Sequence record: OW969666.1
DNA from: a plasmid
Direction: 5' to 3' (one strand)
DNA length: 64,000 nt
Positions 1-32,133 of the stretch are shown here, in pieces. The translations under genes were made by a program, and so were the position numbers. The notes below the pieces were generated by a model. It saw nothing but the letters and a program-made list of their open reading frames with translations. It was not told the origin of the DNA and searched no databases. Positions within the stretch are counted from its first letter, which is position 1; each line of letters begins with the position of its first letter.

Positions 1-1014
1 GTGAATGACAATCAGATTTCTGTTCACTGGTCAGATCTACCGAAAGATGAGCTAACCCGTTTCTGCCAGGATGTCGATGCCGGCACTCAGGGTAATTTCC
101 TCATTGCACCGGTCAAAAAACTGACCCGCCGCAAACGCGGTGAGCATTCCACAAAAGCCAAATGTGAGAACCCGGCCTGGTATCGCCCGGAGCATTATAA
201 AAAGCTCTCCGGACAGCTCGGTCATGCCTACAATCGCCTGGTGAAAAAAGACAAAGAAACCGGGCAGGTCAGCCTGCGCATGCATGTTTCTCGTCACCCT
301 CTCTATGTCGCCGGCCGCCGTAAGGCGGGACGTAAATATGGCTTCCGTCCGGAACGTCAGCGCCTGCTCGATGCGCTCTGGCCAGTGCTCATCAGCTTCT
401 GTGATGCCGGCAAGCATACCGTCGGCATGTGTATCTCCCGTCTTGCAAAAGAACTCAGTGCAAAGGACGCAAAAGGCAATGTCATTCCTGAAACGGAGGT
501 GACGGTGTCACGCCTTTCACGGCTTATTGAGGAACAGGTACGGTTTGGCGTTCTGGGCCTCGCAGAAGAACGCGCCTGGGATCGTGAATCCCGCACCTGG
601 TTGCCAACGTATGTCTATATAACCCCCGTGGGATTCCAGATGCTGGGCGTCGATATGGACAAGCTGTTTAAAGAGCAGGAGAAGAAGCTCCGTCAGAGCG
701 CCGAGCGTGAGCAGCTGATCCGGGAAGGAGTGATGAGCGAACATGATGATGTTCAGGCCCACTCTGCGCGGAAATGCTGGTCTGGCCGTAAGCGTCGGGA
801 GGCACTCGTTTACCGCCGCAATAAAGGCGCGGAGCGTAAACGTGCCAACAATCTGATTAAGCTGCCGGCAGATGAACGACTCCATGCAATGTCTGAATGG
901 ATTTACCGCACCCTCCCGCCTGACGAAGCGTACTGGTGCACATCTGAGCGCCTGAAGGCTCTGGCCATCCAGCATCTTTACCAGCTGGATCTGGCGCTTT
1001 CTCCCCCGGACTAG
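1..1014 (+). CDS. repA: IncFII-family plasmid replication initiator RepA (RepA1-like). May be clipped at the window start, since it begins with GTG at position 1.
   Basis: 337-aa ORF with the basic C-terminal region and overall composition typical of IncFII_repA family initiators. It is followed by a terminator and an A/T-rich region carrying a DnaA box. Confidence 0.7.
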   Translation: MNDNQISVHWSDLPKDELTRFCQDVDAGTQGNFLIAPVKKLTRRKRGEHSTKAKCENPAWYRPEHYKKLSGQLGHAYNRLVKKDKETGQVSLRMHVSRHPLYVAGRRKAGRKYGFRPERQRLLDALWPVLISFCDAGKHTVGMCISRLAKELSAKDAKGNVIPETEVTVSRLSRLIEEQVRFGVLGLAEERAWDRESRTWLPTYVYITPVGFQMLGVDMDKLFKEQEKKLRQSAEREQLIREGVMSEHDDVQAHSARKCWSGRKRREALVYRRNKGAERKRANNLIKLPADERLHAMSEWIYRTLPPDEAYWCTSERLKALAIQHLYQLDLALSPPD

Positions 1015-1043
1015 TCACAGACGACACAACAGTCTTCTTGTTT

Positions 1044-1085
1044 ACGGGCCCCTCACCGGGGCTTTTCGTGCTGGTTTTTTTCGGC
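1044..1085 (+). terminator. Rho-independent terminator downstream of repA
   Basis: GC hairpin gggcccctcaccggggc followed by a T-run (ttttcgtgctggttttttt). Confidence 0.5.
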
Positions 1086-1317
1086 CACTCTGCTCATTTT
1101 TCAACCTTCACTCCGTTCTCCTTCCGGTCACCATGACGTTCTGCTTGTCGTTATGGCCCCCAGTGGCCACTGTCTCTTTTTTTTACACAGAAATCCGCAA
1201 ACGAATAAGTGAAGTAACCCGGAAACGAATAAAAGACATTCCGCAAAACAGTCTTACTTCACCGTTTTTATCTCTCTGTTCATTTCATTCCAGAGTAGAT
1301 CTTTGTCTGCAGTCACT

Positions 1318-1326
1318 CTGTGGATA
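1318..1326 (-). promoter_or_regulatory. DnaA box (TTATCCACA on the minus strand) within the putative oriR region, roughly 1100–1450
   Basis: Exact 9-mer TGTGGATAA, the reverse complement of the DnaA box consensus, ~300 bp downstream of repA, as in IncFII oriR. Confidence 0.4.
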
Positions 1327-1955
1327 ACGAAAAATGCCTTCGCATGCAGCGGCCTCACGGCCTCGCGCTCAGAACAAAATCAAAAGTACCTCCCGTCGCA
1401 AGCGCCGGGCCCCTTTCTGGCCAGAACCCGGCACCGCATACATACCTAACCCCTGCTAAACCGACGCCGCCCCGGCCCAAAGGGCCGGAACACCCTCGCT
1501 TTAAGAGGGATGTTGTAACTAGTATCAAGAGTAGCTGTAGTTAAGTCGCGGTAATCACTTCATACACGCTCGTAAGCGCCTGACGGCGCTAACGCGGAGA
1601 TACAGCCCGTCAGCGGCCATCGGCCTTGACGGACTCACTCCGACCGCGCACATTAGCAATCGGAAAGCTTTAAGCGGGTATAGCTTTGCAGGGAAAGGGA
1701 TGGGATTGGCAGAACCTATCAATCCGTAACGGCTGATGCCGGTTACGACGCCCCTCACCAGAATCACCCGGTTCAGCTCCGGCTGGCGTCTCCATGCCGC
1801 TTCGCGGCATACATGTTCCATGAACCCTGGACTACACAGGCTGGCCATCATGGGCGAAGGTTTACTGACAGCATCAGACTATTATTTTACCCTTTAAAGC
1901 AGGGTTGCCTAAATCCGGGAGCGCGATAAGCTTTAACGGGTGATTTTCAATCAGG

Positions 1956-2771
1956 ATGAGTAAAATGGATATAATTCTTCCGGGAAACAAAAGCCAGGCA
2001 CGACTCTGGGCAGAAACCATGATTAATCTGGAGGCCCGCAAACTCGTCAATACCGCTAATATTGTTGGCGCCCGACATCTGGGGGATGGATTGACGCGTC
2101 TCAAATTCATCGATGAAATTAAATCTGTCATTAATGGCGAATTTGAGCGTGCCCGGCGGGCAAAGTCTGACGAAGAGTGCATGACCTGCCTGCGTAACCT
2201 GCAGGCAGAAAACAGCAGTCTGCTTGAGCAGAGCCGGCAGCTCCAGACCGGTTATGCGAAACTATATGCCCAGATCAAATACGTCAGGGATGAAGACCGG
2301 ATGGTCGGTTATGTCATCTCAGGAATTAAAGTGGTGCTGGCAGGTATGCAGGGCGTATTTGGCTTCGTGCTGACTTCCTCAATGACCCCCGTAGGCGTTC
2401 TTGCCGGGGCTATTCTGATTGTCGACTCGGCCAACACGATAACCCGTGAAGTTGGTCGTCAGTTCCTGAATGAACCTGACACGCAGGGTATGTTTGGTGA
2501 TGGTGCCATGAACATCGCTAAATTCATGGGATTTGAACGATCAACAGGGTTAGGGATATACAACGGGATCGCGCTTGCAGGCAATATCTACAGTGTCTAT
2601 GGATTAATGGCCAGACCTGGGACATGGCGTCTGTTTAACTATATCAGCACCGATTTTTACCGGAAAATCGACACCATGTCCCGGGGTAAACTGACAATGA
2701 AAATTGTGGGATGGGGGGTAAAGGCTAAGGTTGTTTTCGATCTGATCACTTCTGATGACTCCGGGAAATGA
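1956..2771 (+). CDS. Hypothetical protein (DUF4225-like). N-terminal coiled-coil region plus a central glycine-rich hydrophobic helical hairpin, possibly a membrane-inserting toxin-like protein.
   Basis: 271-aa ORF with an SD-like 'aggatgagtaaaATG' just upstream. The central segment VVLAGMQGVFGFVLTSSMTPVGVLAGAILIV...GIALAGNIYSVYGL is strongly hydrophobic. Confidence 0.6.
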   Translation: MSKMDIILPGNKSQARLWAETMINLEARKLVNTANIVGARHLGDGLTRLKFIDEIKSVINGEFERARRAKSDEECMTCLRNLQAENSSLLEQSRQLQTGYAKLYAQIKYVRDEDRMVGYVISGIKVVLAGMQGVFGFVLTSSMTPVGVLAGAILIVDSANTITREVGRQFLNEPDTQGMFGDGAMNIAKFMGFERSTGLGIYNGIALAGNIYSVYGLMARPGTWRLFNYISTDFYRKIDTMSRGKLTMKIVGWGVKAKVVFDLITSDDSGK

Positions 2772-3075
2772 GATTTTTCCGGCGGTAATGCCATGATTTA
2801 TAGGCCAGCTTCAAAGGCATGGTAATCGTAAACAGAGTGCCAAGAACAAGAATAGCCACGCCGAAGGAAATGGTATGCATCCTCGAGCCAGCCAAAAGTG
2901 TGGCCACAAAAATCAGTAACATGACTGACAACACCCATATCAGGGCCTTAAAACGGTTTGCCAGATCGTTCAGCAGGGTATCCATCTCCGTACCCGTCTT
3001 AGCTGAACTGGCCCGCAGCCGGACAATGTCCTCTTCACTGAAGCCGTGGTTCATCAGATCACTTTCATGGTTCAT
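2746..3075 (-). CDS. Small inner-membrane protein, paralog A (soluble N-terminal ~45 aa followed by two TM helices), immunity-like
   Basis: 109-aa ORF convergent with the 271-aa gene and overlapping its 3' end. Its two-helix hydrophobic core is paralogous to the 113-aa ORF upstream of it. Confidence 0.55.
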   Translation of the reverse strand: MNHESDLMNHGFSEEDIVRLRASSAKTGTEMDTLLNDLANRFKALIWVLSVMLLIFVATLLAGSRMHTISFGVAILVLGTLFTITMPLKLAYKSWHYRRKNLISRSHQK

Positions 3076-3157
3076 GCTTCTCTCCTTTTCCCTGCGGGAA
3101 GTTTAACATGCCCTGCGCCAATAACCAGTTAAGCCCGACCGATAATCTGTCAGGTGG

Positions 3158-3499
3158 TTACGGGCTATCACTTTGCTGAAACCTGCCCCGGGCATTCTTC
3201 TGCAGGCGGAATGCTTTCCAGCCAAGAGCCGGTGGAAAGGTCAACCAGGCAATGGTCAGGACAACGAGGGAACTCATGCCGCCAGACAGGATATGTGTCC
3301 GGCTGCCGGCGATGAGAATGACCAGCATAATCAGAGCGAGCGCGACCGTGATCCATACCGATACCCGGAAGCGTCGTGAAAGTGCTGCAATGAAGCCCTG
3401 CATAGTGCCACCGGTTGCTGAAAGCCGCTCCAGTAAAGTATCCACATCACGGTTACTGAAACCTGCCTCAAGAAGCTCTTTCTCACTGATAGCCATCAC
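3158..3499 (-). CDS. Small inner-membrane protein, paralog B (same architecture as 2746–3075)
   Basis: 113-aa ORF with an N-terminal 'EKELLEAGFSNRDVDTLLERL' segment aligning to 'SEEDIVRLRASSAKTGTEMDTLLNDL' of paralog A, then two TM helices. Confidence 0.55.
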   Translation of the reverse strand: MMAISEKELLEAGFSNRDVDTLLERLSATGGTMQGFIAALSRRFRVSVWITVALALIMLVILIAGSRTHILSGGMSSLVVLTIAWLTFPPALGWKAFRLQKNARGRFQQSDSP

Positions 3500-3510
3500 G
3501 TCATCCTAAG

Positions 3511-4281
3511 TCAGCCAAAAGTAGTCTGTACCAGACCAATGATCCCCAGGTGGCCGGCGTAAGCATAATAAAAGAAATTACGCGGCATGAAACGCCTACG
3601 GCCCTCCGGACATATTTGCCTGCAGAATGAAACCACTGCCAGGGGGAATGCCAGAGTAGGCAGCGTGGCCAGTAATAATGTTTCTGCGGGCATATCCAGG
3701 AGATGCGATAACCCGTTTAAACAAATCAGTGACAGCACGGCAGTGATGGCTGCCAGCCGCTGCACTCCGGGTGTATCGCTGCCAGAAACCGTTGCCATAC
3801 TGATGGCCAGCGTTATTCCTGCCAGTCCGTAACTTGCCGGCTGCAGGGGCCAAATCATAAGGGCCAGGAGCAGATACCCGGCAAGCATTCCTTTCCGGCC
3901 GTGCCGGTACTGCAGGGCAAGCAGCTGCGTGACGCCTGCAAACACGAACAGAATGTTCAGGGCCCACCAGGGCTGTTGATTCTGGAAGGCCAGGCTGAAC
4001 ACCGGCTGCGTTATGACTGCCCAGATCCACAGACGATTGGCTCTCTTCTGCAGTCGCTCCGGGGTGCGCTGTACGTTCATCGCCCATATAAGCGTGAACA
4101 GGGGGAAGGCCATCCGGCCAAGCGCATACATCACCGGCAAGGCTGACGACAGAAACACCGTATTGGTGTGGTCGATAATCATGGCCAGAAGTGCGAGAAG
4201 TTTGACCATATCGAGTGCAGCGGGACTGAGCTGGCTGGCGTTCCGGATAGTGGGAAGAACGTCGGGTAATGAATGATTCAT
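3511..4281 (-). CDS. traX: F-pilin acetylase TraX
   Basis: 256-aa polytopic membrane protein with a TraX-family signature. It is an orphan: no traI upstream and no finO downstream. Confidence 0.8.
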   Translation of the reverse strand: MNHSLPDVLPTIRNASQLSPAALDMVKLLALLAMIIDHTNTVFLSSALPVMYALGRMAFPLFTLIWAMNVQRTPERLQKRANRLWIWAVITQPVFSLAFQNQQPWWALNILFVFAGVTQLLALQYRHGRKGMLAGYLLLALMIWPLQPASYGLAGITLAISMATVSGSDTPGVQRLAAITAVLSLICLNGLSHLLDMPAETLLLATLPTLAFPLAVVSFCRQICPEGRRRFMPRNFFYYAYAGHLGIIGLVQTTFG

Positions 4282-4647
4282 GCTGTATATTCCCCTGGCG
4301 ACACGCGGTTAACAGCCAGCCCTGAACATAATGCCAGAATGCCCTGCCGGTTTGCGTTGTGATCCTGACTCTGAGTTTCTCCAGAATCTTGCGCACCGCA
4401 AATTCTGATTTATCACGCAGCACGCGCATTGCGCCTGCCACATCCTTATTCTGAATACAGATACTTAAAATATGAAAATCGTTCATGACACTCCCTTACT
4501 TACTATATATATCGGCAAAAATATTGATATATTTAGATTAAGGAGTGTAATTGTTTATTATTTTACCATAGTTTGCAGGAGCAGTTTTTTATAATTATAA
4601 AACATGCTGCTGCAAAATAACTTCATATACATCTCAACCTAAACCTA

Positions 4648-5172
4648 TTATTCCTGGCTGATATCCGAAGAGGGAGCAGGATGAAGCTTTGCATAATCTT
4701 CTCGAAGCGATTTTGCCGCGGGTTTCCAGGCTTTCGCCCACTCATCATCCATTCTACCTACACCAACAATCTTCAGTGCGACAGCATAGGGAGTGCGCCC
4801 TTGCTGTTTTGAAAGCCACAGGATGTGATCATCAATTCTGTCATCAGGTATATCGTCGATAATGGAATGGATAACATCGAGGTCCTCTGATAGCCACGGC
4901 TTTCCAGTACGGGGAAACACCAGGTCCGGTTCGCGCGGTTTCTTTACCTTCTCGTTTTTGGCGATCTGTCTGGCTTCTTTCTCCGCAGAAATGAGTCGTA
5001 GTCGCTCCTTAAGCCCACCCAATGTGGCAACCGTTTTAATTAAATTTTCTCGCTGTTCGCGAGTAATACTTTGCTCATCACAGATCAGGTCGTTCAGGGT
5101 ATCGATGAGTGTATCCACCCGATTTTCTGTTAATTTCATTTCCAGTTCTCGCTTAAGGCTACAACTCAGCAT
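4648..5172 (-). CDS. Hypothetical acidic protein (likely start at MKLTENR, ~5139)
   Basis: 174-aa ORF with a coiled-coil/charged N-terminus. No family recognised. Confidence 0.45.
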   Translation of the reverse strand: MLSCSLKRELEMKLTENRVDTLIDTLNDLICDEQSITREQRENLIKTVATLGGLKERLRLISAEKEARQIAKNEKVKKPREPDLVFPRTGKPWLSEDLDVIHSIIDDIPDDRIDDHILWLSKQQGRTPYAVALKIVGVGRMDDEWAKAWKPAAKSLREDYAKLHPAPSSDISQE

Positions 5173-5313
5173 TCTATTAGATATCTATCTGATTTCGCAT
5201 CCCTGTTGATCTCATAAATGCAGCCCATAGTCTCGATCACTGACCATGGAAGCCTGATGCTAAAATGATATACTTATGTAAGAACAAATCTTACATAATG
5301 AAACGGAGGGGTT

Positions 5314-5574
5314 ATGGCCCGTACAATGACGGTGGACGTGGGTGATGAGCTGCGTGAATTTATCGATTCCCTGGTTAAGGCCGGTGATTACCGAACCCAG
5401 AGCGAAGTCATGCGTGACGCGCTGCGGCTGCTGCGCGAGAAGCAAGCTGAATCACGCCTTCAGGAACTGCGTGATCTGCTGGCCGAAGGCATCAGCAGCG
5501 GCGAGGCGAAACCATGGAACAAGGATGCATTCCTGAATAATGTCAGGGCCAGGATGGCAAATGAAAGAGATTGA
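5314..5574 (+). CDS. parD: ParD/RHH-type antitoxin
   Basis: 86 aa with an RHH-like N-terminus (MARTMTVDVGDELREFIDSLVKAGDYRTQSEVMRDALRLL). Its 3' end overlaps the toxin gene. Confidence 0.8.
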   Translation: MARTMTVDVGDELREFIDSLVKAGDYRTQSEVMRDALRLLREKQAESRLQELRDLLAEGISSGEAKPWNKDAFLNNVRARMANERD

Positions 5575-5857
5575 GCTGACACCAAAAGCAGAAGAAGATC
5601 TGGAGGCTATCTGGGACTACAGCTTCAGACAGTTCGGGGTTGTTCAGGCGGATGCGTATATCGGGCGTATAGCCGCAGTGTTTGATGTGCTGGCCATGCA
5701 TGACATCGGCACGCATCGCGCAGAGCTGGGAGAAGATATCTGCTCGCTGCCGGTGGAACAGCACATGATCTATTTTGTGTCATCACATTCGGTGGTTACG
5801 ATCATACGTATTCTCAGTCAGTCTCAGGATACGGCGCGGCATGAACCATGGATATAA
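5561..5857 (+). CDS. parE: ParE/RelE-family toxin
   Basis: Starts MKEIELTPKAEEDLEAIWDYS, typical of ParE. It overlaps parD and has a conserved C-terminus. Confidence 0.8.
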   Translation: MKEIELTPKAEEDLEAIWDYSFRQFGVVQADAYIGRIAAVFDVLAMHDIGTHRAELGEDICSLPVEQHMIYFVSSHSVVTIIRILSQSQDTARHEPWI

Positions 5858-6000
5858 CTGAATGTGTAAAATAACAATCAAATTAAATACTTAGTTCGCG
5901 CAATCTATCTTATGTTAAATTTAGTCCGTCGTTCATTTATTTTATACCCGACCGCAGACTACGATTAGTCATACACAGATATACTCTTTCATTTAGTTTA

Positions 6001-28036: not shown

Positions 28037-28945
28037 TCACCTGTTCTCACCTTTATAATAGCGAATCAAATCCTCCAGAGATATATCGATAGCTACCTGT
28101 TTTAATAACTCCTTTCTCTCATTATATATTTTCTCAAGCATTTCTTCATATCCCTGGCCGAGGTGAATTTGCTTATGGCAATTGCAACACAGCGATATTA
28201 TATTTTCTTCGACGTCAAGCGAAGTGTTAAAATCATCCTGCATGGACATAGGTACAATGTGATGAGGTTCAGTATAATTCAGGGAAGAGTTACGCCTTCT
28301 GAAGGTTGGGTGTTCACCATCGACTTCACATCTGTAACCTGCTTTGTTCAGTGCATTTTTCGAAACCCCTTTATTTCTTGGGTACGAGACGCCATTTTTT
28401 ACTTCAATTGCATGTTTCTTTGGTTTAGCTTCCCCTGTATATTCAAATGCCTGGGCGATATCAAATGTATTATTCGCTTCCATGGCGTTGATCAACTCAT
28501 CGTCTGAGTAATACTCATTGATGGTTATTTCTTCCACACCAAATAAATCCAGCTCTTTAATTGCCTGAACAAGTTCATCACGAATAGTCCATAAGTATCT
28601 TTTTGGTTTTTCACCGGTTTCTTTACTCTTCATGACTGTAATGAATTTTGTGCCAGGTGCTATATTCCCGATCCCTTTAACTTCAAACCTTCCTAGCTCT
28701 TTTTGAACTCTACCACCGAGCCCGTTAATAACGCCATTAGCACTCATACTGTGCTGGTCGTACTTTTTGCCTATATCAAAACATGTGCAGGAATGATTTG
28801 GTTCAATATACCATTTTTTTAACGCCTCAATACTTTTAGAGTCAAAAACCTTTTCATTCATTAACAGATTTTTCCATTCTTCCACACTGATATCAATGTC
28901 GCAGACGTACTCCCCGTCAATTACCTGGCAAATCTTATAGATCAC
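28037..28945 (-). CDS. HNH endonuclease-domain protein with an uncharacterised N-terminal domain
   Basis: 302 aa. The C-terminal HNH motif is EPHHIVP...CCNCHKQIH, and the N-terminal ~200 aa has no recognised family. Confidence 0.75.
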   Translation of the reverse strand: MIYKICQVIDGEYVCDIDISVEEWKNLLMNEKVFDSKSIEALKKWYIEPNHSCTCFDIGKKYDQHSMSANGVINGLGGRVQKELGRFEVKGIGNIAPGTKFITVMKSKETGEKPKRYLWTIRDELVQAIKELDLFGVEEITINEYYSDDELINAMEANNTFDIAQAFEYTGEAKPKKHAIEVKNGVSYPRNKGVSKNALNKAGYRCEVDGEHPTFRRRNSSLNYTEPHHIVPMSMQDDFNTSLDVEENIISLCCNCHKQIHLGQGYEEMLEKIYNERKELLKQVAIDISLEDLIRYYKGENR

Positions 28946-29491
28946 GATCTATCCCCCCTGTAATAAAAAAATCATCACAATACACAGTCCGTTACCCGGT
29001 ATGAGTGCAGTCAGGTAACATCTGCAGTATGCCATATTTTCAGCTCTGGTAAATCAGAAAAACCATTGTCATGGCATCTCAAATTAAATTATTTCTGAAA
29101 TTACTAAACTTCAGCATCCATCACCGACTATACCATGTTTTCTGTCTGGCCCAGATATAATGGACAGTTAGTTCCGCTCATTATCCGCGATGATGAAATA
29201 GTCTCCGGCCAACAAAACCGTACAATGTTTTCAATGACCTGCACTTTTAACTGAACAAGTGAAAAACCATTCAGAACTTAAAATGTTAACAATAATTTCA
29301 TGCTGGCGTGTATGCCACATTATTCACATTTTGCGAATGAAAATAACTGGCATAATTGAATTTAATGATAATGTTACATATTGTCAGCCAGGTTCCGGAA
29401 AGCGAGAACCGGAACCGCACCTGTCCAGCCGGTATTTCCGTCGATGACCCTCGCTTTTTACTGATTTGTGCCCGACTGAGAAATCGGTAAC

Positions 29492-30514
29492 TCAGTTTCG
29501 GAATCGGCGCAGATGAGTTTCCGGAACAAAATAAATGTTGCCGCGCGCCCGTGAGCATGCCACGTACAGCCTGTTACGGGACGATGGTGGAAGGGCTGCC
29601 AGTTCCTGACGGGTCAGAAGCTTCCAGTGGGCGGGCCCCATCACAATGCAGACATCCTGAAAGTGATCGAGCCCTTTGCTGACGCCCCAGTTCATGGAAT
29701 AGCAGCCGTAACGGTGATGCTCACGATAGAAGAGCTTAATCACCGTATTATCGGCGTGCAGGGCGGCTGTGCGCTCTGCATCTGTGATCGTTTCAATCAG
29801 GGTGGCATGTATCCCATGGGCAGCGATACGGATGTTCAGTTGCCCGGTGATAAACTCGCACACCGAAGTCGAGCAACGCCATGTTCGGTTGAGCGTGTTA
29901 CGGTCAACCATGAAACCTGCTGCGGCGAAGCGGGCCTCATATCGCGTAATGTCATCGTGCAGCGCTGAATTAACGTTGCCGTCACGGCTTGTATCAAAGG
30001 TATGCTGATAAAAATCACCGCAACACAGCACAGTGATTTCCGCACGGCAGAGCTCCAGCAGAAAATCAAAGTCATGTCCGGCAAAGTCCTGGACTTCATC
30101 GACAAGCAGTTCATCGTAGTAACGGGCAAGCCGGGTACGGATATCCGGCAGCAGCCCCCGGGCTGTCAGCAAGTGTGCGAGCCTCCGGTGATATAGCCGT
30201 CCGGCGGGATCCTGATAATGCCGGGCATTCGTGCGCGGTATTCCGGGAGGGGGTCGGTCGAAGCTCAGGCCACGCGATGCCAGCCGCTCCTGCAGGAAAG
30301 GCCGGAAGCAAAAACCGTGCAGAAACTCAAACCAGGTCATCACCCTGATCCCGTCCGGGATAAAGCCAAAACGTCTGATAATCTGCGCCCGCAGATGCGC
30401 TTCATTATTCACGGTGAAGGTCAGGATCAGCGTTCTCCGGTCCTCACTCAACCGCCGTATCAGCAGCGTGGTCTTGCCCGAGCCGGCAACCGCAAATATC
30501 ACTCTCTTATCCAT
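29492..30514 (-). CDS. Minimal UvrD/Rep-like SF1 helicase core (GajB-like partner of an OLD nuclease)
   Basis: 340 aa with Walker A AGSGKTT at residues 10–16, DEVQDF (motif II), GDFYQ (motif III), WRCS (motif IV-like) and VACSRARG (motif VI). It lacks the 1B/2B accessory domains. Confidence 0.7.
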   Translation of the reverse strand: MDKRVIFAVAGSGKTTLLIRRLSEDRRTLILTFTVNNEAHLRAQIIRRFGFIPDGIRVMTWFEFLHGFCFRPFLQERLASRGLSFDRPPPGIPRTNARHYQDPAGRLYHRRLAHLLTARGLLPDIRTRLARYYDELLVDEVQDFAGHDFDFLLELCRAEITVLCCGDFYQHTFDTSRDGNVNSALHDDITRYEARFAAAGFMVDRNTLNRTWRCSTSVCEFITGQLNIRIAAHGIHATLIETITDAERTAALHADNTVIKLFYREHHRYGCYSMNWGVSKGLDHFQDVCIVMGPAHWKLLTRQELAALPPSSRNRLYVACSRARGNIYFVPETHLRRFRN

Positions 30515-30747
30515 GCCAGTGCCTCCTGAATATAATCAGGTACCGTCAGCTCTTCGGCGTGCAGCTGTAACAGCCGGAATGCTGCTTCTGCCTTATTGGC
30601 CAGCATGTATTCCTGCACCGTGAGTGTTCGGCGGGTTCCGCGGAAAAGCGCGTCACACAGAGCAGCGTTATCCTGATACAGGCAGATTTCAAATGTGGAT
30701 CGGGTGTTGTCGCGATCAGCAAATGCCCGGGTGCGGGAACACAGCAC
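30499..30747 (-). pseudogene. C-terminal TOPRIM segment of the OLD-family gene in an alternative frame (apparent frameshift at ~30790–30850)
   Basis: 82-aa ORF in a different minus-strand frame. It contains AFADRDNT (TOPRIM DxD motif) and a conserved-looking C-terminus, and overlaps the helicase start by 16 bp. Confidence 0.5.
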
Positions 30748-32060
30748 GTCAGCATAGCGTTCATCGCAGTTTTGCTGATAGTTTCCGTCATTATCACGAA
30801 GGGCCGCGACGCGATTTTCCAGAAGACGGGCAGTTCAAGATAACGACGGAAACTCGTTCCGCCGATAGCGATGATGTGAACCCCGTCATCCTCCGGCGCC
30901 CTGCCATACAGGCGGCGATAAAAGGCCTCAATCAGAATAAACTCAGCATCCCCCTCCACGAGCAGTGCACGTCTGGCTAGCGCAAATTCCAGCACGTTAT
31001 TATCCGGTGCTTTCATGAAGAAGGCGGCAGTCTCAGCGGAAAGTTCATTCATCAGTACCGGCCGGGTAGATCCGAGGAGGATTGCCTTACGTAGATCGAG
31101 GCGGGAGGAGATATGGCTGCTGTGTGTGGCAATAAACACCTGCGTCTGCCGTTCAGTGGCAAGCTGATTAACCAGCCTCTTCATACTGACATGGCTGAGA
31201 TGATTCTCCGGCTCCTCAAGCAACAGTGCGTGGAGCTCTCCCTGCTGCTGATGCCGCTGCAGCGCAAACTCTGTTTTGATGAAGCACTGCCTTCCTTTTC
31301 CACGGTGACGAATGGAAATACCGTCCTCGGTAATGTCCAGATTCGCCTCAAGACCTGATTTAGCACCGGAACGCACGCCAAACTGATACGTTTCCAGCGT
31401 GTCGTTTATGGCTGACAGATGCCGGGTGCAGAAGAGCATTTTCTGTTGCCGGTAACTGTTTTCAAGCCGGTAACGATCGGCCACCGGCACATTGACGCTG
31501 TAAACTGTGCGCGTATATTCCTGTGCGGCGTGCTCGTTATCGATGCGTGCACTGTCTAACAGCAGATGGCGCAGATAGCGTCTGAAGCCGGCGAAATGAC
31601 CACCGGAGAAGGTGCTGAACCGCACGGAATAGTATTCATAGGGAAAATTATCGGGATCCTGCTGTAGTACATTGTGAATATCCTGACCGTATTCCTCCGT
31701 CATTGGTGCAATGCGCATTCTGAGTCCATCCGCATCGATACCCGCCAGATTTTGCCTGCCGTTCAGGTCAGGATCTCCCCCATTACTCAGGAAAACGTCA
31801 GCTGTCAGCACGGGTAACAGCTCGGCGCGGCGCTCACCTTCCTGAAAATGCCTGACTGCTGACTGGGACAGGAGCGATTCCACACCCAATGCCTCGACCC
31901 GGTGCCGGCTGTCACTCAGCACAAGGTCAAGGGCCAGCAGAATCGTGCTTTTCCCGGACTCGTTGTCACCGACCAGAATGTTACGGTCATGAGTGAAGCG
32001 CAGATCCAGTTCCGGAAACTTTTTAAAGTTTTGCAGCATAAGCCGCGTGATCAGAGGCAT
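30546..32060 (-). CDS. OLD-family ABC-ATPase / TOPRIM nuclease (class-2 OLD, GajA-like). Its 3' end reads out of frame (see 30499–30747).
   Basis: N-terminal P-loop GDNESGKST, an ABC signature/D-loop region, then the TOPRIM glutamate LLVEGDAEFILIEAF. The last ~50 residues of the ORF look like frame-shifted junk. Confidence 0.75.
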   Translation of the reverse strand: MPLITRLMLQNFKKFPELDLRFTHDRNILVGDNESGKSTILLALDLVLSDSRHRVEALGVESLLSQSAVRHFQEGERRAELLPVLTADVFLSNGGDPDLNGRQNLAGIDADGLRMRIAPMTEEYGQDIHNVLQQDPDNFPYEYYSVRFSTFSGGHFAGFRRYLRHLLLDSARIDNEHAAQEYTRTVYSVNVPVADRYRLENSYRQQKMLFCTRHLSAINDTLETYQFGVRSGAKSGLEANLDITEDGISIRHRGKGRQCFIKTEFALQRHQQQGELHALLLEEPENHLSHVSMKRLVNQLATERQTQVFIATHSSHISSRLDLRKAILLGSTRPVLMNELSAETAAFFMKAPDNNVLEFALARRALLVEGDAEFILIEAFYRRLYGRAPEDDGVHIIAIGGTSFRRYLELPVFWKIASRPFVIMTETISKTAMNAMLTCCVPAPGHLLIATTPDPHLKSACIRITLLCVTRFSAEPAEHSRCRNTCWPIRQKQHSGCYSCTPKS

Positions 32061-32133
32061 CTTTTATTCCTTTATATACCGCTGACTGAAAGAGTGTCCG
32101 GCAGCGCCAGACCGCCTGTTTTGTATTACAGCG

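Follow-up and report, generated by a model that had tools for sequence, protein, structure and literature searches.

The DNA considered here is a 64,000-nucleotide (nt) stretch of a plasmid (source record OW969666.1), referred to below as the window, and all positions are those of the whole window. It contains a module of three genes, which encode a protein of the DUF4225 family, proposed to be a toxin and referred to below as toxin A, and two small membrane proteins proposed to confer immunity. The longest form of the toxin open reading frame (ORF) extends over 1956-2771 on the + strand and encodes 271 amino acids (aa). The real start is placed at 1965, giving a protein of 268 aa (1965-2771), since an 'MD' start is conserved in alignments of 37-121 homologues and since this start is used in the RefSeq annotation (WP_013087100.1). 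The two small genes lie on the - strand: imm109 (2746-3075, 109 aa) is convergent with the toxin gene, and imm113 spans 3158-3499 (113 aa) when read from a GTG codon, or 3158-3496 (112 aa) from the ATG at 3496 that RefSeq takes as the start. All three ORFs are present as described in a first-pass annotation of this DNA, including the overlap of the first small gene with the 3' end of the toxin gene, a tail-to-tail coding overlap of 26 nt (2746-2771) that can be read directly from the sequence.

The annotation had attached the label 'DUF4225-like' to the toxin, and this label is correct. The Pfam model DUF4225 (PF13988) matches aa 81-242 with 108.6 bits (cut-off 25.9; E = 2.9e-31) over model positions 2-165 of 165, and scans of Pfam and NCBIfam at E values of up to 1 matched the toxin to DUF4225 only, with no other Pfam domain. 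A total of 305 homologues were found, the best 120 of which are 50-93% identical to the toxin and all ~264-299 aa in length. The N-terminus (MDIILPGNKSQARLWAETMINLEARKL) contains no hydrophobic h-region and no Sec-type signal as judged from hydropathy, no dedicated signal-peptide predictor having been used. The N-terminal region forms three helices in two AlphaFold2 (AF2) models, with a predicted local distance difference test score (pLDDT) of ~77-88; the domain comprises aa 11-97 (1995-2255, + strand) as delimited by AF2 and column entropy, and in the first model, numbered on the 271-aa form, the confident region is aa 12-97 (pLDDT ~80-88). It is the most conserved part of the family and carries the near-invariant motif TM(I/V)NLEARKL, the lowest column entropy of the toxin (0.28 bits) falling on the TMINLEARKL block, and it may be a delivery or loading domain.

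Within the DUF4225 domain, aa 113-162 of the 268-aa form (2301-2450, + strand) are a candidate for a Gly/Val-rich hydrophobic helical hairpin on the basis of hydropathy and composition. This stretch of 50 residues contains only 4 charged residues, 14% Gly and 18% Val, and has a mean hydropathy of 1.20 with two peaks, so that both the helical N-terminus and the central hydrophobic hairpin of the earlier description are recovered. Four glycines in the candidate hairpin are invariant (G115, G133, G144 and G148), and two patches of the toxin are hypervariable, namely aa 128-137, which lie in the hairpin (entropy 2.0 bits), and aa 158-177. In the homologue alignments, the DUF4225 part of the toxin contains no invariant His, Cys or Ser.

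With a BLASTP identity of 33% over 105 aa (E = 1e-18), the two small proteins are true paralogues, and by hydropathy each consists of ~40 N-terminal residues followed by two hydrophobic 19-mers (Kyte-Doolittle values of 2.0-2.9) and a basic tail, in agreement with the earlier account of paralogous proteins with a head and two transmembrane (TM) helices. Across 68 homologues, Lys and Arg residues number on average 2.0 immediately ahead of TM1, 0.6 within the loop of 6 residues and 4.8 in the tail, a distribution of charge from which an N-in/C-in topology is predicted. In the same 68 homologues the TM helices are the most variable parts of the family, and conservation is higher both in the head (consensus SE..LL.SGF(S/T)..D..., DLA.RF) and in the tail (YKSWRY). 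From this pattern of conservation, the head might bind the conserved N-terminal domain of the toxin in the cytoplasm of the producer, in the manner of a chaperone or adaptor.

A profile search of 1.84 billion cluster representatives gave 104 relatives of the small proteins at E values of up to 1e-3, mostly of ~100-115 aa, together with shorter fragments and one 249-aa protein. Scans of Pfam and NCBIfam at E values of up to 1 gave no Pfam match and no colicin-immunity family for either imm109 or imm113, and PADLOC gave no match for the toxin or imm113 and only one at E = 0.042 to a generic '2TM effector' model for imm109. A ParG-like match on the head of imm109 (E = 0.031) was discarded as below threshold. 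Membership of the small genes in an F-type tra operon, for example as entry-exclusion genes, was also rejected, because the traX gene beside them is isolated from the tra operon and because such small genes accompany DUF4225 genes in chromosomes without tra genes. The Shine-Dalgarno sequences of both immunity genes are good, imm109 being preceded by a strong AAGGAG. Owing to the 26 nt overlap there is no room for a terminator between the toxin gene and imm109, and the tail-to-tail arrangement of the genes implies that the convergent transcripts overlap; a regulatory role of this overlap is speculation.

The annotation had described the module as unassigned. Its basic classification is already published, since it belongs in kind to the DUF4225 effector/immunity pairs of type VI secretion systems (T6SS), in a subfamily that is contained in the work of Jana 2022 (PMC9765294) and in a Pantoea preprint (bioRxiv 10.64898/2026.08.01.741415). 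An experimentally characterized member is a DUF4225 protein of Vibrio parahaemolyticus CFSAN018764, encoded downstream of hcp and delivered by T6SS1 (Jana 2022, PMC9765294). This effector was toxic and lytic in Escherichia coli only when it was targeted to the periplasm, the cytoplasmic form being non-toxic, and it was neutralized by an adjacent 89-aa protein with three TM segments that is encoded immediately downstream (Jana 2022, PMC9765294). DUF4225 is also found fused to N-termini of the type V secretion system (T5SS)/contact-dependent inhibition (CDI), Rhs and Sec-signal types (Jana 2022, PMC9765294).

In the available part of Dataset S4 of the same paper (PMC9765294), Enterobacter and Erwinia members of 268-272 aa are listed with DUF4225 at ~76-240 and, for the 268-aa homologues, a Phobius TM segment at 112-135. 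Their 'Down1' neighbour is a protein of 104-105 aa with the Phobius topology i43-63o69-93i at a distance of -4 or -7, further two-TM paralogues occur nearby, with arrays in E. cloacae, and one member from Erwinia mallotivora lies 17 nt downstream of hcp. Furthermore, the DUF4225 proteins Pse9a/b of Pantoea agglomerans were identified as T6SS1 effectors by proteomics, and their neighbours were named Psi9 immunities, of which an orphan homologue exists (bioRxiv 10.64898/2026.08.01.741415). Two P. agglomerans DUF4225 proteins in the present homologue set (P0107 and P0157) share the full-length architecture of toxin A, including the N-terminal domain, at 51-54% identity; these are tied to Pse9 by species only. 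Periplasmic toxicity, immunity through a small TM protein and T6SS-dependent secretion are properties established for homologues, and they are extended to the window proteins below in conditional terms.

A survey of homologue neighborhoods, which had been suggested as a check of the toxin/immunity reading, supported it. A scan with the toxin alignment, one genome being retained per species, yielded 80 species-level loci (labelled L0xx) in Enterobacter, Erwinia, Pantoea, Mixta, Tatumella, Kosakonia, Yersinia, Morganella and others, and these were searched by phmmer with both small proteins. A small-protein homologue on the opposite strand abuts the 3' end of the toxin gene at 78 of the 80 loci; one of the two exceptions is a contig edge and the other a degraded toxin gene. 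Of 67 intact pairs, 61 have a tail-to-tail overlap of at least 4 nt; the two modes are overlaps of 4 nt, found in 26 pairs, and of 23 nt, found in 21. Such recurrence, at 78 of 80 loci that are independent at the species level, puts the arrangement far beyond chance. Clustering of the ORFs within 6 kb at the 80 loci revealed no other conserved neighbor, LysR regulators and ABC ATPases occurring at background frequency only, so that the mobile unit is a cassette of two genes.

The two partners also evolve together. The identities of the toxins and of their partner immunity proteins co-vary (Mantel test, Spearman r = 0.80, none of 2000 permutations being as high), and the immunity protein diverges faster than the toxin, with 76% identity for the toxin versus 50% for the immunity protein at one locus (L010) and 61% versus 32% in another comparison. 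Membership in the DUF4225 family, the conserved pairing and this co-varying divergence support the earlier reading of the module as a toxin with convergent membrane immunity. Several loci also contain remains of the kind typical of polymorphic toxin systems: a second complete toxin/immunity pair is present at L036, extra immunity genes at L029, L062 and L066, toxin 3' fragments beside extra immunity genes at L059 and L072, and a frameshifted or fragmented toxin gene beside an intact immunity gene at several loci, including L009, L020, L068, L081, L083 and L085-L087.

Positions 1500-4300 of the window are 100% identical to many IncFII/IncFIB conjugative plasmids of Enterobacter hormaechei and E. 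cloacae, such as NZ_CP012169.1 (p34998-210kb), and related sequence is found in 289 PLSDB plasmids, 206 of them from Enterobacter and the rest from genera including Citrobacter, Klebsiella, Escherichia and Salmonella. To judge from homology, imm109 is the cognate immunity gene of toxin A: its closest relatives sit beside the closest toxins (L009 and L010), and toxin A occurs with a 109-like immunity gene alone on other plasmids, such as an E. coli IncC hybrid in which the toxin is 98.5% and the immunity protein 95% identical. In contrast, the nearest relatives of imm113 (74-78% identical), located in the chromosome of Klebsiella aerogenes, in E. chuandaensis and on plasmids, are convergent partners of toxins that are only 53-56% identical to toxin A. 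A toxin-less orphan copy similar to imm113 is present in the E. sichuanensis chromosome. Directly upstream of this orphan (L006-L008, 7637-7969) lies a gene for a 110-aa protein rich in Gly/Ala, in which the N-terminus is signal-like and glycine-zipper-like motifs are repeated (GAVAGAAIGAATG...); this protein is unrelated to the immunity family.

The E. kobei plasmid NZ_CP104725.1 carries, in order, repA, a toxin gene referred to as toxin B (55% identical to toxin A), a convergent immunity gene, immB (78% identical to imm113), and traX, and the window shares its junction between traX and the immunity gene. By blastn, the backbone flanks at window positions 1-1810 and 3196-5858 align to NZ_CP104725.1 at 92.4% identity, whereas 1811-3195 are replaced, which delimits the variable cassette with respect to the allele-B sister plasmids. 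The right-hand break of B homology falls at ~3196-3198, inside the last ~40 nt of imm113. A toxin 3' remnant downstream of imm113, which would prove displacement, was sought and was not found. The synonymous divergence (dS) between imm113 and immB is 0.56 compared with 0.12 for the adjacent traX, which indicates that imm113 represents an older allele. Since sister IncFII plasmids hold allele B at the same locus, the window is read as allele A with a stacked B-like immunity gene, and from its sequence the second immunity gene looks borrowed from the rival version of the cassette on sister plasmids. The earlier proposal that the tandem copies reflect diversification of immunity is thereby given a more specific form, in that imm113 belongs to a different specificity lineage.

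A and B are the two common alleles of this plasmid locus. In PLSDB, toxin A (at least 90% identity) is found in 129 plasmids and imm109 (at least 90%) in 125, toxin B (at least 90%) in 96 and immB-like genes (60-80% identity to imm113) in 93, and imm113-like genes (at least 80%) in 63. From these counts, approximately half of the A-type plasmids also carry B-like immunity, and no B-type plasmid with A-type immunity was seen, there being no excess of 109-like genes. The sister plasmids with A and B have RepA proteins that are 96-98% identical, and the alleles are mutually exclusive at one locus of the backbone. The ratio of nonsynonymous to synonymous substitution rates (omega) in the plasmid lineage is 0.06-0.08 for toxin A, 0.18-0.43 for imm109 and 0.71-0.85 for imm113; the value for toxin A denotes strong purifying selection and indicates that the toxin is maintained. 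In addition, all three ORFs are intact in two diverged copies of the three-gene module (L092 and L093), and 355 of the 380 plasmid records with toxin matches in PLSDB hold a near-full-length match in one piece. On the plasmid p12379_2, toxin A is frameshifted, the 109-aa gene is present and the 113-aa gene is deleted.

Taken as a whole, the module is probably a polymorphic DUF4225 effector/immunity cassette, delivered by the T6SS of the host and acting on membranes, with imm109 as the cognate and imm113 as a stacked immunity gene. The following mechanism is proposed. The cassette would have been built into an Enterobacter IncFII/IncFIB backbone between repA/oriR and the traX-family gene, and its 268-aa protein would be an orphan cargo effector, without a signal peptide and harmless in the cytoplasm of the producer. 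Most likely, a chromosomal T6SS of the host fires toxin A into neighboring cells; such delivery is suggested by the family record, by a conserved helical domain at the N-terminus and by the missing signal peptide. T6SSs are present in the host genus. The toxin would then act on the envelope from the periplasmic side, most likely through insertion of the hairpin into the inner membrane, and lysis would follow. The inner membrane is the probable target in view of the Gly-rich hairpin with its invariant glycines, of a DUF4225 part in which no His, Cys or Ser is invariant, and of an immunity protein with only ~6 residues on the periplasmic side. Because only these ~6 residues face the periplasm in the predicted topology, imm109 would neutralize toxin A inside the inner membrane. 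The variable TM helices of the immunity proteins match the variable aa 128-137 of the toxin hairpin and the variable aa 158-177, which suggests that specificity is read within the bilayer. Finally, imm113 would protect its carriers from B-type toxins, and B-armed cells would stay sensitive to toxin A.

Several observations weigh against this proposal. In the window, the 6 kb around the toxin are free of T6SS genes, and none recurs at this distance among the 80 loci, so that the T6SS link of the window toxin rests on homology and on the literature on its relatives; a search for hcp immediately ahead of the toxin gene at the 80 loci found none either. The lysis caused by the Vibrio effector was amidase-like, unlike that of the membrane-disrupting control Tme1 (PMC9765294), and on this account it may be the cell wall, and not the membrane, that is attacked. 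AF2 runs with alignments of 37 and 121 sequences both gave a pLDDT of <40 for the whole DUF4225 domain; Foldseek, which had been proposed as a check on the toxin, gave no match in the PDB better than E = 0.48 with the toxin model, and an hmmsearch of PDB sequences with the toxin profile gave nothing below E = 0.19. With a low-confidence domain and no structural match, structure neither supports nor refutes a pore-former as opposed to an enzyme. Furthermore, the Vibrio immunity protein differs from those of the window (89 aa and three TM helices, encoded immediately downstream of its effector), some plasmids carry a frameshifted toxin A, and the near-neutral omega of imm113 suggests that this gene may be decaying rather than protective.

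The broken toxin genes bear on a different explanation, in which the locus is mainly a defensive island of immunity against DUF4225 attack by other Enterobacter and the toxin is a passenger or is being lost. Toxin-free orphan immunity genes in chromosomes, broken toxins beside intact immunity genes at several loci and on p12379_2, and the arrays of extra two-TM paralogues in E. cloacae in the available part of Dataset S4 (PMC9765294) all fit such an island. However, in the window lineage the toxin is intact, and of the three genes it is the one under the strongest purifying selection (omega of 0.06-0.08 against 0.18-0.85), and the plasmid toxin matches are near full length and in one piece in 355 of 380 records, which makes a mainly defensive role unlikely. 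It is also very improbable that the module is no toxin system and consists of three ordinary membrane or housekeeping genes that are adjacent by chance. Toxicity was shown for a homologue rather than for the window protein and the DUF4225 fold has no confident model, but a two-gene cassette conserved across otherwise unrelated genomic contexts, an immunity protein that diverges faster than the toxin (50% against 76% at L010), allele replacement at a fixed plasmid locus, the orphan immunity genes and toxin 3' remnants (L059 and L072) and the experimental validation of a family member (PMC9765294) all speak for a toxin.

A toxin that acts independently of the T6SS must be considered as well, whether by bacteriocin-like release, by delivery through the conjugation machinery or as an intracellular addiction pair with post-segregational killing. 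The absence of a local T6SS gene, the position of the cassette in a maintenance and transfer backbone beside repA, ParDE and a traX-family gene, and a convergent immunity layout like that of pore-forming colicins are compatible with this idea, as is the fact that DUF4225 is not tied to one delivery route, being found with T5SS/CDI, Rhs and Sec fusions (PMC9765294). On the other hand, the toxin has no signal peptide, no LexA box (CTGT-N8-ACAG with up to 1 mismatch) was found upstream in 1015-1964, and there is no lysis gene after the toxin, where the genes are the two immunity genes and the traX-family gene. Pfam and NCBIfam detected no colicin or toxin-antitoxin (TA) family domain, most family members are chromosomal two-gene cassettes with no type IV secretion system nearby, and the architecture is shared with proteins of Pantoea agglomerans, which is the species, though the species only, of the T6SS1 effectors Pse9a/b. 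Classical post-segregational killing is further disfavored by the non-toxicity of the Vibrio homologue in the cytoplasm (PMC9765294). A system independent of the T6SS is thus improbable.

The surroundings of the cassette are those of a resistance plasmid. On its left lies repA (1-1014, + strand, by the annotated gene order). On its right, on the same strand as imm109 and imm113 and directly upstream of them, lies a gene for a TraX-family acyltransferase (3511-4281, - strand; Pfam TraX, E = 1.7e-36), the stop codon of which is 11-14 nt before the start of imm113. The NCBIfam TraX_Ftype score of this gene, 123.8, is under the cut-off of 149.35. No terminator-like site was predicted between traX and the immunity genes, the counts of the promoter and terminator scans being at chance level across the region; with no predicted terminator between them, read-through is plausible, and the traX-family gene probably provides read-through transcription to the immunity genes. 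In the reference plasmid NZ_CP012169.1 this gene and the F-type tra operon lie far apart, the operon being absent from 1-94 kb and from 162-211 kb. The first-pass annotation had placed the module where finO would normally follow traX; traX in fact precedes the small genes, and since it is detached from the F-type tra operon, the finO position is not a meaningful landmark. Together with the DUF4225 cassette, the traX-family gene is found in several plasmid contexts, among them the E. coli IncC hybrid.

Beyond traX are a gene for a conserved hypothetical protein of 174 aa (4648-5172, - strand) without a family match in Pfam, NCBIfam or PADLOC, a ParD/ParE type II TA pair that is separate from the cassette (5314-5857, + strand) and, beyond ParDE, a large pco/sil island of copper and silver resistance (6077-27352). 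In the sister plasmid NZ_CP055006.1, parD is annotated and no parE is listed after it. The region 28037-32060 (- strand) holds a Gabija-type anti-phage pair, composed of a GajB-like UvrD helicase (29492-30514; PADLOC E = 1.6e-46) and a GajA-like ATPase (30546-32060; PADLOC E = 1.2e-82), and adjoining it an HNH or type IV methyl-directed restriction-like gene (28037-28945; E = 6.5e-8), all on the - strand. The window differs from NZ_CP012169.1 by an indel near GajA, since this gene starts at 30546 here and is annotated at 30499-32061 in the reference. In NZ_CP012169.1 a 'VasL domain-containing protein' is encoded at 204447-205793, outside the window; counted across the record origin, this gene lies ~6.4 kb before repA. 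The VasL domain is associated with T6SSs, and this is a possible second T6SS-related gene of the same plasmid backbone. A search of window positions 1-6000 against Rfam found nothing.

What appears to be new here is a two-allele effector/immunity locus in the backbone of a resistance plasmid, a hybrid that carries both immunities and the convergent overlap throughout the family; the two plasmid alleles and the hybrid with both immunities are not described in the available parts of Jana 2022 or the Pantoea preprint. The plasmids considered here are of the pECL_A-like IncFII/IncFIB family, which spreads heavy-metal and antibiotic resistance, with carbapenemase genes in relatives, among Enterobacter, Klebsiella, Citrobacter and E. 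coli in hospitals. It is a tentative and rather doubtful further suggestion that the cassette is a weapon in competition between plasmids, used through the host T6SS and with one-sided protection of the A type. If this were true, A carriers would kill plasmid-free segregants and B carriers, carriers of A plus B-like immunity would also resist B, and the locus would constitute a contact-dependent, population-level addiction or exclusion system of clinically important resistance plasmids; A- and B-type plasmids are presumably incompatible. A contact-dependent toxin with its immunity in the backbone would favor carriers over plasmid-free cells and over carriers of the rival allele, an advantage that would help to explain plasmid persistence without antibiotic selection. 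The natural allele pairs A/109 and B/immB and the hybrid are suited to a comparison of cross-immunity, the hypervariable patches, which correspond between the toxin hairpin and the TM helices of the immunity proteins, indicate where specificity is located, and the convergent overlapping layout of the family may have a regulatory meaning.

Among the systems that have been characterized, the Vibrio DUF4225/Imm4225 pair resembles the window cassette in having a stand-alone PF13988 protein of ~245-270 aa that lacks a signal peptide and is extended at its N-terminus by 60-80 aa, in the adjacent small membrane immunity gene and in a location on or beside mobile DNA. The Vibrio effector differs in its length of 243 aa, its position directly downstream of hcp and its lack of a Phobius TM segment, there being no hcp near the window toxin. 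Imm4225, compared with the window immunities by description only (length, TM number and gene position), has 89 aa and 3 TM, whereas the window family has 105-113 aa, a cytosolic head and 2 TM and is encoded on the opposite strand with overlapping 3' ends. The Enterobacterales subfamily of 268-272-aa DUF4225 proteins (Pse9/Psi9 and the available part of Dataset S4) is the family to which the window genes belong, with full-length identities of 50-93%, a 104-105-aa two-TM neighbor that overlaps by 4-7 nt and orphan immunity paralogues. Its members differ in being chromosomal or carried on megaplasmids, whereas the window cassette occupies a fixed polymorphic locus on a conjugative IncFII/IncFIB resistance plasmid. 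A type II TA module was considered and rejected, because the genes are convergent rather than operonic, the 'antitoxin' is predicted to be an integral membrane protein and no TA family was matched.

The comparison with colicins made in the first-pass annotation holds for the layout and fails for the components. Pore-forming colicins are plasmid-borne, and their immunity gene, for a small inner-membrane protein with 3-4 TM, lies on the opposite strand at the 3' end of the toxin gene. Colicins attack from the periplasmic side after release and uptake via Tol or Ton, and the immunity proteins Cai and Cei of colicins A and E1 are thought to recognize the hydrophobic helical hairpin of the toxin within the bilayer. 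The window shares with them a plasmid location and a convergent gene for an inner-membrane immunity protein (26 nt overlap, 2 predicted TM), a likeness of layout only, and by analogy the in-membrane logic of immunity is probably colicin-like. However, the window lacks a colicin pore domain (PF01024) and domains for receptor binding or translocation, as well as an SOS box and a lysis gene, its immunity proteins have 2 TM rather than 3-4, and delivery is probably by a T6SS. CDI (cdiA-CT/cdiI) and Rhs loci are known for orphan immunity genes and displaced toxin/immunity cassettes, and the present family resembles them in that alleles are replaced at a fixed locus, an older immunity gene has stayed in place, 3' remnants of toxin genes lie beside orphan immunity genes at some loci (L059 and L072), and immunity diverges rapidly. 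In those systems the C-terminal tips of a giant protein are swapped, whereas here whole small toxin genes are exchanged, and the immunity gene retained in the window no longer has its original 3' end, which was lost where the recombination junction lies.

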